A DNA stretch of 64,000 bases from Escherichia phage RCIP0319. Shown piece after piece: positions 49,453 through 50,881 of this stretch. Both the position numbers and the translations under genes were made by a program. The stretch lies in the sequence record PV464738.1; one strand, given 5' to 3'. The notes beneath the pieces were generated by a model, which saw only the letters and a program-made list of their open reading frames with translations, was not told the origin of the DNA and searched no databases. How positions within the stretch are numbered: position 1 is the stretch's first letter; every line of letters starts with the position of its first letter.

Positions 49453-49596
49453 ATGAAACATATAGGATGGCTTGTGAACGGTGTATTTTATAGAATCGAA
49501 GATGAGAAAAGAGTGGACGCAATAAGAAGTTGTTCTCCAAATCCTCCTCAAATTCTTCCTATCTATGCAGAGGAGGATGTATGCATAAAGTATTGA
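49453..49596 (+). CDS. small protein (47 aa)
   Basis: RBS GGTGAGG then ATG; overlaps start of transporter gene by 16 nt. Confidence 0.25.
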   Translation: MKHIGWLVNGVFYRIEDEKRVDAIRSCSPNPPQILPIYAEEDVCIKY

Positions 49597-50057
49597 TGAC
49601 ATCACTCTTAATATTAATGTATGCAGTCGCTAATCTAGCGGTCGTAACGTTCGGCGTTTGGATCACCCCGTTAAACGCGCTTGTCATCATAGGCGCTGAG
49701 ATAGTCATAAGGGACCGTATCCAATATAAATACGGCTTTGCGTATTCCATATTCAGTTGCTTGGCAGCAGGTGTTGTCACAGTGCTGATAACGCCATCCT
49801 CATTAAAGATTGCAATCGCCAGCGTAGCCTCAATCGTAATCGCAGGCATTGTGGCAGGAATAGCATTCAAATTAAGGGAAGGATCATTCTATAAAAAGTC
49901 TTTCTCAGCAAACATATTTGCTGCTGCAGCCGATTCACTAGTATTCCCTTTGGTCGCGTTCGGTGCATTCATGCCTTACGTTACAATGGCTCAATTTTGC
50001 GCAAAAACATTAGGTGCCAGCATCATTCTTTTGATTATGAGGAAGATAATTAAATGA
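49581..50057 (+). CDS. yhhQ: YhhQ/QPT-like membrane transporter (queuosine-precursor transporter family; putative)
   Basis: ATG 49581 after RBS GAGGAGGA; about 158 aa, multiple TM helices; C-terminal AAADSLVFPLVAF resembles the YhhQ NVSDTLAFFFIAF region; ATGA-coupled to the DpdA-like gene. Confidence 0.4.
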   Translation: MHKVLMTSLLILMYAVANLAVVTFGVWITPLNALVIIGAEIVIRDRIQYKYGFAYSIFSCLAAGVVTVLITPSSLKIAIASVASIVIAGIVAGIAFKLREGSFYKKSFSANIFAAAADSLVFPLVAFGAFMPYVTMAQFCAKTLGASIILLIMRKIIK

Positions 50058-50881
50058 CAATCCACTTTCATGGATCACCAATTACTGGCGGGAAAGGTCC
50101 GAAGGCTGCCATAGCATCATACCGTGACGGAGGCGCTTTTATATCATTTGCCGCGGCACGCCAAATTGATTTGGCATTTGAATTCTCAAAGACGGTATGC
50201 ATAGACAATGGCGCATTCAGCATGTTTAACTCTGGGAAGGTGCCTGACTGGAATAAGTTCTATTTTGAATTCTTGCCTCGTTGGATAAGTAACGAAAAAC
50301 TAAGGTTTTTCGTAATTCCTGATGACATAGAAGGCGGCGAAAAGGAGAATGACGCCCTTTTGGATTCAGTACCAAGTGATATGCAATCAAAGGGAGCTCC
50401 TGTTTGGCACATGCACGAGTCAATCGAAAGGCTTTTACGCCTTTGCCGTGACTATGAATACGTGTGCATAGGGTCATCAGGCGAGTATTATGCAATCCGT
50501 TCTCAAAAATGGAAGGAGCGGATGAAGGCCGCGTGTATGGCTATAATCGAATCAGGGTCAAAGGCAAAGATACACGGATTAAGGATGCTTGATGGAAGGG
50601 TATTGGGCAATTACCCACTCGACCAAGCAGATTCAACGAATATTGCAATCAACGTTGGCAAGTACGATATGAAGATGCCAGAGGTAACGGTGGAGGCCTG
50701 TCGTGCACTAACGCACCCGACTAAATGGGTTGAGCCGCGCCACTCATATGATGCGCTATCCAAGTTCATCGCCAATGGAGGTGACAAGGCAGACATCGCA
50801 GCGTACCGCGCGGCAGTATTAAGAGGAGCTATAGAGTCCGTCAAACCGCCTGGAAGAGAAGAGTGGTATAAATCTCAATAA
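50054..50881 (+). CDS. dpdA: tRNA-guanine transglycosylase-fold protein, DpdA-like (putative 7-deazaguanine DNA transglycosylase)
   Basis: 275 aa; CIDNGAFS resembles the TGT active-site DSGGF segment; CIGSSGE resembles TGT AIGGLxVGE; later LDQADSTN. Confidence 0.5.
   Translation: MTIHFHGSPITGGKGPKAAIASYRDGGAFISFAAARQIDLAFEFSKTVCIDNGAFSMFNSGKVPDWNKFYFEFLPRWISNEKLRFFVIPDDIEGGEKENDALLDSVPSDMQSKGAPVWHMHESIERLLRLCRDYEYVCIGSSGEYYAIRSQKWKERMKAACMAIIESGSKAKIHGLRMLDGRVLGNYPLDQADSTNIAINVGKYDMKMPEVTVEACRALTHPTKWVEPRHSYDALSKFIANGGDKADIAAYRAAVLRGAIESVKPPGREEWYKSQ

Follow-up and report, generated by a model that had tools for sequence, protein, structure and literature searches.

A transporter–DpdA gene cassette in a Wifcevirus-type Escherichia phage as a putative salvage module for 7-deazaguanine DNA modification

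The 64,000-nucleotide (nt) stretch of Escherichia phage RCIP0319 analysed here (sequence record PV464738.1; hereafter the window) contains a small gene cassette in which a transporter-like gene, ORF A, is translationally coupled to a dpdA-like gene, ORF B (ORF, open reading frame; Table 1). A preliminary description of this DNA had pointed to the two ORFs at positions 49581–50881 as an ATGA-coupled pair, and both the ORF listing and direct reading of the sequence bear out this arrangement: at the junction AAATGACA, the start codon of ORF B lies over the stop codon of ORF A. A TTG codon at position 49530 was also considered as the start of ORF A but is unlikely, since the homologs start at M(H/R)KVLM and the ATG at 49581 has a strong ribosome-binding site (RBS). 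The pair is real, but it is not the full unit, as a third conserved gene, encoding a 47-aa protein and overlapping the start of ORF A, had been missed.

ORF B matches PHROG 887, ‘queuine tRNA-ribosyltransferase’ (4e-71), the same PHROG to which the DpdA of phage CAjan belongs (8e-96). Alignment of the ORF B family with CAjan DpdA by hhalign gave a probability of 94.1% (E = 1.3e-7, 158 columns), and the DpdA of Salmonella phage 7-11 shares 38% identity with ORF B over 261 aa (BLASTP, E = 4e-54). The predicted fold is the TIM barrel of the TGT superfamily, and the two TGT-like segments that had first drawn attention to the protein, CIDNGAF and CIGSSGE, are present at residues 49–55 and 138–144, respectively. 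The family assignments of both ORFs rest on phage-specific profiles, chains of homologs, and predicted structures. On this basis, the earlier TGT-fold/DpdA assignment is upheld, and we conclude that ORF B is a phage DpdA-type guanine transglycosylase (DpdA1-like, of the cluster formed by ‘DpdA-only’ phages of gamma-proteobacteria) rather than a canonical TGT. The protein had also been called short and divergent. It is divergent in that standard models do not detect it, but it is not short within its subfamily, in which lengths of ~234–285 aa are found. Compared with canonical TGTs and the DpdA of the bacterial Dpd system (PDB 7ui4), ORF B is ~100–140 residues shorter and has no zinc site and no DpdB partner; the CxCxxC...H zinc motif and the tRNA-recognition module are missing, and its five cysteines are scattered and mostly non-conserved. 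Both features are also lacking in the CAjan and 7-11 enzymes, whereas E. coli Tgt has C302/C304/C307. The ORF B family comprises 2,698 clusters at 90% identity and 1,338 at 50%. Its named members are mostly ‘hypothetical protein’ entries from Enterobacterales, and many lie on phage-sized contigs. In a profile search of 1.8 billion proteins with this family, the matches listed were all close relatives (E <= 1e-34) and included no bridge to canonical TGTs; none of the 120 homologs listed has a precomputed Pfam domain.

The residues expected at the active site are well conserved. In 34 diverse homologs, D51 (in IDNGAF, with F55), D90 (IPD), H119, G140-S-S-G143, H174, D180, and D193 (ADSTN) are invariant, and L176 is nearly so. 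The active site of CAjan DpdA was reported to contain Asp63, Asp105, His132, Phe189, and Asp206 (Kot et al. 2020); in the profile alignment, four of these five residues (Asp63, His132, Phe189, and Asp206) align exactly with D51, H119, L176, and D193 of ORF B, respectively, and Asp105 falls within 3 residues of the invariant D90. The published set for bacterial DpdA (bDpdA) consists of D95 as the acid/base with F99, D130 and H181 at the base edge, L236 for stacking, and D256 as the nucleophile. By alignment, not superposition, these correspond to D51, F55, D90, H119, L176, and D193 of ORF B. The predicted roles are thus acid/base for D51 (with F55), recognition of the base edge for D90 and H119, stacking for L176, and nucleophile for D193 (with H174).

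Some members of the ORF B family (P0029 and P0035 in alignment A1) have a C-terminal extension of ~50–70 aa that resembles a helix-turn-helix (HTH) tail, and the JGI name of one relative is ‘transcriptional regulator with XRE-family HTH domain’. DpdA proteins of the ORF B type may thus have been fused with DNA-binding domains.

ORF A is a multi-spanning membrane protein, and its likeness to queuosine-precursor transporters, noted in the preliminary description, was recovered in several ways. It matches PHROG 4899 (2e-22), in which CAjan gp41 (‘putative preQ0 transporter’, 159 aa) and a PEAT2 protein named ‘VUT family protein’ are also placed. The AlphaFold2 model (pLDDT 94.1) has six helices, at residues 3–24, 26–51, 53–70, 72–98, 103–127, and 132–157. 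When the family alignment (A3) was compared with E. coli YhhQ by hhalign, a probability of 89.9% was obtained (E = 1.7e-6) over 151 columns, in which residues 5–155 of ORF A are aligned with 15–199 of YhhQ. The homology thus extends over the whole six-helix core, with the shared motifs IAxAS ... D(S/T)LxF ... IAF and ~24% identity over the best segment. YhhQ has 221 aa, compared with 158 aa in ORF A, in which loops and termini are trimmed. Since the alignment covers the whole core, the possibility that ORF A is a truncated YhhQ fragment was dropped, and ORF A is regarded as a trimmed full-length homolog. A profile search with the ORF A family retrieved 197 proteins. Of the 120 listed, nearly all are 154–191 aa long and the majority have a PF02592 domain; the names of several are YhhQ (DUF165) or queuosine precursor transporter. 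Scores against Pfam Vut_1 (cut-off, 27.2 bits) were 13.9 bits for the homolog in phage Sadiya, 25.3 for CAjan gp41, 38.1 for PEAT2, and 42.6 for homolog P0002, the last two being above the cut-off. These data support the placement of ORF A as a membrane protein of a short phage branch of the VUT/YhhQ family (COG1738, PF02592).

The fold of ORF A is of a small-molecule-binding type resembling that of the S-components of energy-coupling factor (ECF) transporters, which is common to the thiamine, riboflavin, folate, biotin, and cobalt S-components. The energising proteins EcfT and EcfA do not appear in the annotation of the related phage HermannAdler_Bas98 (hereafter Bas98), which represents the backbone of the window, although no search aimed at EcfT/EcfA was made. 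E. coli YhhQ works without an EcfT/EcfA energising module. ORF A is therefore regarded as fold-related to the ECF S-components and not as a member of that group. The RefSeq annotation of E. coli YhhQ is queuosine precursor transporter, and the protein has been described as a preQ0 transporter (Hutinet et al. 2019; Kot et al. 2020; both citing Zallot 2017). From its sequence relationships, ORF A is predicted to be an importer of a 7-deazaguanine precursor.

The same three genes, in the order 47-aa, 158-aa, and ~275-aa and with the same 1–4-nt overlaps, are found in T1-like siphoviruses (Sadiya, Opt-719, Phleasolo, Opt-79, LHE71, and Phc) and in three metagenomic loci (L093–L095). DpdA identity between these modules and the window is 58–72%, and that of the VUT protein is ~54%. 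In this closest clade, the 158-aa VUT gene always overlaps the dpdA start by 1–4 nt. The T1-like phages belong to the Drexlerviridae and carry the module in another genomic neighbourhood, whereas the window derives from a Wifcevirus myovirus. In GenBank, their DpdA is labelled ‘hypothetical protein’, and the small ORF is unannotated. Homologs of the 47-aa ORF (46–57% identity) lie directly upstream of the VUT and DpdA pair in L093 (213–353), L094 (4403–4543), and L095 (4400–4543), and an unannotated copy is present in Sadiya (locus L001, 3379–3540; E = 4e-25). Their consensus reads MKHIGWLVNGVFY...YAEE.VC.KY, and in every member of the closest clade the gene is translationally coupled in front of the VUT gene. 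Differences between the copies number ~16/15/28 at codon positions 1/2/3, with 11–17 synonymous codons per pair, and this substitution pattern indicates that the ORF is a coding sequence. The 47-aa protein has no PHROG match.

The linkage of the two larger genes was also assessed across the 80 best IMG/VR loci encoding an ORF B-type DpdA, considering a neighbourhood of ~6 kb. A short VUT gene directly abuts dpdA in seven of these loci (upstream in one, downstream in six), and QueC and QueE are present in one. Among GenBank phages, the pairing was found in PEAT2, AB3P2 (in reverse order), the Sadiya group, LHE71, Phc, ECO111 5-P, and Tbat1_6. Adjacency in both gene orders therefore extends to distant phages of Pectobacterium, Acinetobacter, Escherichia, and Klebsiella and to a bat-derived phage. 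Carriers of the cassette include the Wifcevirus myovirus of the window, T1-like Drexlerviridae siphoviruses, and one 135-kb contig (L094); this spread over unlike virus lineages indicates that the module moves horizontally. The apparent source from which the phage of the window obtained it is the gene pool of T1-like phages (Drexlerviridae) and other coliphages.

The 135-kb contig (L094, ENA contig k119_17901) is possibly an undescribed large phage; the 4.4 kb flanking its cassette has no megablast match in a collection of 50,697 phage records. Another setting of a short VUT gene was seen in the temperate coliphages of the mEp021 group. In Enterobacteria phage mEp021 (locus L007, 1991–4259), the VUT gene mEp021_32 is flanked by a gene for a phrog_474/9871 protein and one for a phrog_757 DNA methyltransferase, and a Dam-like methyltransferase gene lies upstream. 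These surroundings are a DNA-modification neighbourhood of a different kind. The gene following the VUT gene was considered as a cryptic dpdA, but it is the phrog_757 methyltransferase gene and was dropped.

The window is that of a Wifcevirus-type E. coli myovirus, collinear with Bas98 at ~91–93% nucleotide identity across 59.5 of its 64 kb. By blastn, positions 2435 and 2439 of the phage SP13 locus (L003) correspond to window positions 49435 and 50887, so that the sequence between them is extra in the window. In comparison with Bas98, 49453–50886 is the largest private segment, all others being <1 kb each, and Bas98 positions 55333–55349 match both junctions of the insertion. The cassette is a clean insertion with exactly defined boundaries: the stop codon of a conserved 86-aa gene on the left and a terminator/promoter element on the right. 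The cassette DNA has no match in any Wifcevirus record, and its absence from all 28 Wifcevirus records that match the insertion region shows that it is dispensable for the genus. Its GC content (44.5%) is not distinct from that of the flanking DNA. The insertion lies in an early-gene block of the phage, and the neighbouring genes are small phage ORFs.

No genes for precursor synthesis were recognized in the window, in agreement with the preliminary description. The best tblastn match obtained with CAjan FolE, QueD, QueC, QueE, and other proteins of the CAjan cluster had an E-value of 0.13, in a search that covered the 64-kb window; a further ~5 kb of genome, corresponding to the Bas98 terminase-to-portal region, lies beyond it. 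Queuosine or 7-deazaguanine genes are absent from the annotation of Bas98; with such a backbone, and with every other private segment being small, there is no room in the window for a preQ0 pathway. As the synthesis genes are absent, the precursor would have to come from the host or the medium. The earlier suggestion of precursor salvage from the host is thereby supported, and it agrees with the proposal of Hutinet et al. (2019), who defined the DpdA-only group (76 phages) and proposed reliance on host preQ0 or uptake. YhhQ homologs of phages had already been noted in that study, and the yhhQ homolog of CAjan was studied by Kot et al. (2020). The salvage reading is thus supported here, and the combination of VUT/YhhQ with a DpdA-only background has already been described in the literature.

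Among known systems, a close counterpart of ORF B is the DpdA of Salmonella phage 7-11 (gp032), which represents the DpdA-only phages (group 3 of Hutinet et al. 2019) and is encoded at 30.8–31.5 kb of that phage. The two belong to the same subfamily and lack the zinc motif, neither phage shows preQ0 synthesis genes, and in both cases the host has the full queuosine pathway. Phage 7-11 differs in having no short VUT homolog, either in tblastn of the phage or annotated beside dpdA, whereas ORF B is coupled to one; its DpdA is 234 aa long as annotated and has no counterpart of the ORF B segment at residues ~213–248. The CAjan cluster (DpdA gp35, YhhQ-like gp41, and FolE/QueD/QueE/QueC) shares PHROGs 887 and 4899, a VUT protein of ~159 aa, and the active-site residues with the cassette, but identities are low (~24% for DpdA and ~21–26% for VUT), and the CAjan dpdA and VUT genes are not adjacent. 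CAjan makes its own preQ0 and replaces ~32% of G, in contrast to the window, which is without synthesis genes. No dPreQ0 is found in CAjan ΔdpdA (Kot et al. 2020). CAjan ΔqueC, which keeps DpdA and the yhhQ homolog, has 3.5 dPreQ0 per 1,000 nt from host preQ0, compared with 44 in the wild type. The DNA of phage 7-11 contains 50 dADG per 10^6 nt (~0.02% of G).

We consider it fairly probable that the cassette serves 7-deazaguanine modification of DNA as a self-contained salvage module, as far as this can be predicted from gene content. In the mechanism proposed here, ORF A would be a VUT/YhhQ transporter of the inner membrane, S-component-like and acting alone, and would bring more of a queuosine precursor base into the cell from the medium, most likely preQ0 and possibly preQ1, adding to the preQ0 made by E. 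coli FolE/QueD/QueE/QueC. ORF B, judging from homology and the conserved residues, would flip guanines out of replicated double-stranded phage DNA and swap in the 7-deazaguanine base, using the double-displacement reaction of TGTs with D193 as the nucleophile and D51 as the general acid/base. The expected product would be dPreQ0 or dADG at a minority of G, from ~0.02% of G, by analogy with 7-11, up to ~1–2% of G, a value obtained by our conversion of the CAjan ΔqueC figure. At best, this would provide partial or motif-specific protection from restriction or other DNA-targeting defences. By analogy with published phages, DNA modification is probable, though possibly scarce, and the modified nucleoside may be dADG or dPreQ0; a low level is expected because the comparable cases, 7-11 and CAjan ΔqueC, are low.

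A number of results weigh against this interpretation. Among the TGT and YhhQ profiles by which the preliminary description had proposed to check the two assignments, Pfam TGT (PF01702) and E. coli Tgt gave no match with ORF B and Pfam Vut_1 none with ORF A itself, and positive results came from the phage PHROG profiles and the YhhQ alignment. ORF B has no Pfam family at E <= 1, no meaningful NCBIfam match, and no match in PADLOC, including its DpdA model (ORF A has none either); phmmer and a 34-sequence profile found nothing among PDB sequences, and hhalign of the ORF B family with E. coli Tgt returned a probability of 0.1%. However, CAjan DpdA, which has been validated genetically, is likewise without a Pfam TGT or PDB sequence match and reaches the PADLOC DpdA model only at E = 0.0013, so that the miss is a property of the lineage. 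The pairwise link of ORF A to YhhQ is weak (BLASTP, E = 0.007; A2 profile, 17.9 bits). In 72 of the 80 IMG/VR loci, neither VUT nor QueC/QueE is present near dpdA. E. coli itself possesses a YhhQ and can make preQ0 by a complete pathway, which calls the added value of a phage transporter into question.

Some of the published measurements would also fit a DpdA that is real but nearly silent on DNA and whose value lies elsewhere, for example in re-routing the host queuosine-precursor pool (tRNA-Q status and translation of phage codons), or a cassette that is a neutral hitch-hiking moron. Orion, another DpdA-only phage, was found to be entirely unmodified and 7-11 has only its trace of dADG, the 12-fold lower dPreQ0 level of CAjan ΔqueC gives no protection from restriction enzymes (Kot et al. 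2020), and phages with pathway genes and without DpdA could raise the Q precursor, and hence Q (Hutinet et al. 2019). The absence of the cassette from the 28 Wifcevirus records points in the same direction. We regard this explanation as unlikely, since invariant catalytic residues in 34 homologs of a large family argue for a maintained enzymatic function, and tight coupling to a precursor transporter, in both orders, would be hard to explain if the base were not used. That coupling also bears on whether ORF A imports a 7-deazaguanine at all. It could instead be an S-component-like binder or transporter of another molecule, or have another membrane role (e.g. superinfection exclusion), and merely share a mobile block with dpdA. 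ORF A has no Vut_1 match of its own, the VUT label is the generic ‘vitamin uptake transporter’, the fold is common to several vitamin and cobalt S-components, and in the mEp021 lineage a short VUT gene adjoins DNA methyltransferase genes with no ORF B-type DpdA seen. Moreover, CAjan ΔyhhQ is the same as the wild type, with no detectable effect on modification; this mutant is nevertheless uninformative on transport because de novo synthesis is intact. These alternative roles of ORF A nevertheless appear quite doubtful. Adjacency to dpdA recurs in both orders across distant phages, and the CAjan homolog lies within a preQ0 gene cluster. In addition, the ORF A family aligns over the whole core with E. 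coli YhhQ, which is described as a preQ0 transporter and is the one protein of the wider family to which the sources consulted assign a substrate.

A target other than DNA is very unlikely. ORF B could act on tRNA or on protein-linked deazaguanine, as Cap10 does in type IV CBASS (cyclic oligonucleotide-based antiphage signalling system), e.g. as a counter-defence that intercepts the NDG-modified CD-NTase. The Asp nucleophile of Cap10 is paired with a His (D248/H226), and the invariant H174 and D193 of ORF B have an analogous spacing. The operon partners of Cap10, however, are Cap9 (QueC-like) and a CD-NTase with an N-terminal Gly-rich tail, an arrangement that the ORF B locus does not have; tblastn found no QueC/Cap9-like gene in the window. 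ORF B is also without a zinc or tRNA-binding subdomain, and for its relatives with experimental data (CAjan and 7-11), action on DNA or an association with DNA modification has been found. A more speculative view, which we hold to be rather improbable, is that the trio is a mobile ‘plug-in’ unit unlike that of CAjan, in which ORF A would import a base other than preQ0 (preQ1, queuine, or a gut-derived analogue), the 47-aa protein would be a specificity or activating partner of DpdA, and the modification would be of low stoichiometry and motif-specific or of an undescribed kind; in a variant of this view, DpdA-only enzymes would hit protein-linked deazaguanine, against type IV CBASS.

Returning to the salvage module, DpdA-only phages are the largest group carrying 7-deazaguanine-related genes (76 in Hutinet et al. 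2019) and the least understood. The phage of the window differs from Bas98 and SP13 at the cassette site only by a 1.45-kb three-gene insertion and thus provides a natural experiment, and because its host is E. coli, for which queC, queD, and yhhQ mutants and preQ0 feeding are routine, the salvage hypothesis is directly approachable. The same natural experiment could help to show what the short phage VUT family and the 47-aa protein do. The ORF B lineage of DpdA is missed altogether by standard annotation (Pfam, NCBIfam, and PADLOC), and most of the relatives seen here are unnamed or labelled ‘hypothetical protein’. This work therefore offers a well-founded annotation and a convenient experimental handle; it will not surprise the specialist, since modules of this kind are already known. 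What this work adds is a module of this kind in a Wifcevirus, for the first time in the records that were searched, together with the precise borders of its insertion, a third gene that is conserved, a fold of the short VUT that resembles an S-component, and the observation that VUT, when present at ORF B-type DpdA loci, always abuts dpdA.

Table 1. Genes and sequence elements at the cassette locus (window coordinates).
Feature	Position	Strand	Remarks
Terminator-like stem-loop (AAAAGGTGAGCTAAATGCTTGCCTTTT; also AAAAGGTGAGCTAWATGCTTGCCTTTT) followed by promoter-like TTGCCT-N17-TATACT	48188..48234	+	
Conserved 86-aa gene	49175..49435		Stop codon is the left border of the cassette
Cassette insertion relative to other Wifceviruses	49436..50886 (1,451 bp)	+	blastn against SP13 locus L003; Bas98 comparison
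12-nt partial copy of the terminator/promoter element (GGTGAGGTAAAT)	49441-49452		Resembles the 5' arm of the element; left insertion junction
Conserved 47-aa ORF (MKHIGWLVNGVFY...YAEEDVCIKY)	49453..49596	+	RBS GGTGAGG; 16-nt overlap with the start of ORF A
ORF A, 158 aa from ATG	49581..50057	+	RBS-like GAGGAGG before the start
ORF B, 275 aa	50054..50881	+	
Second copy of the terminator/promoter element	50887..50933	+	Directly downstream of ORF B; right insertion junction

The terminator/promoter element, with the promoter-like part TTGCCT-N16/17-TATACT, is present in exactly two copies in the window, where none is expected by chance. The two copies bracket one block of small genes, and the cassette lies at the 3' end of this block. 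The upstream copy is the probable start of the transcription unit that bears the cassette. The cassette would be transcribed together with the block of small non-structural genes, probably from a sigma-70-like promoter near 48206, and read-through would end at the terminator at 50889. Because the cassette is inserted at the second copy and a 12-nt look-alike is found at the other junction, these elements may serve as recombination points for the exchange of gene cassettes.

Further segments of the window have no counterpart in Bas98, namely 54225–55194 (970 bp), 60277–61090 (814 bp), 53166–53564 (399 bp), and 52523–52824 (302 bp). These segments are probably other variable cassettes of the accessory-gene region. 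The largest of them falls in the 54–56 kb bin, which has the lowest GC content (0.40) and the highest GC skew (+0.22) of the window.

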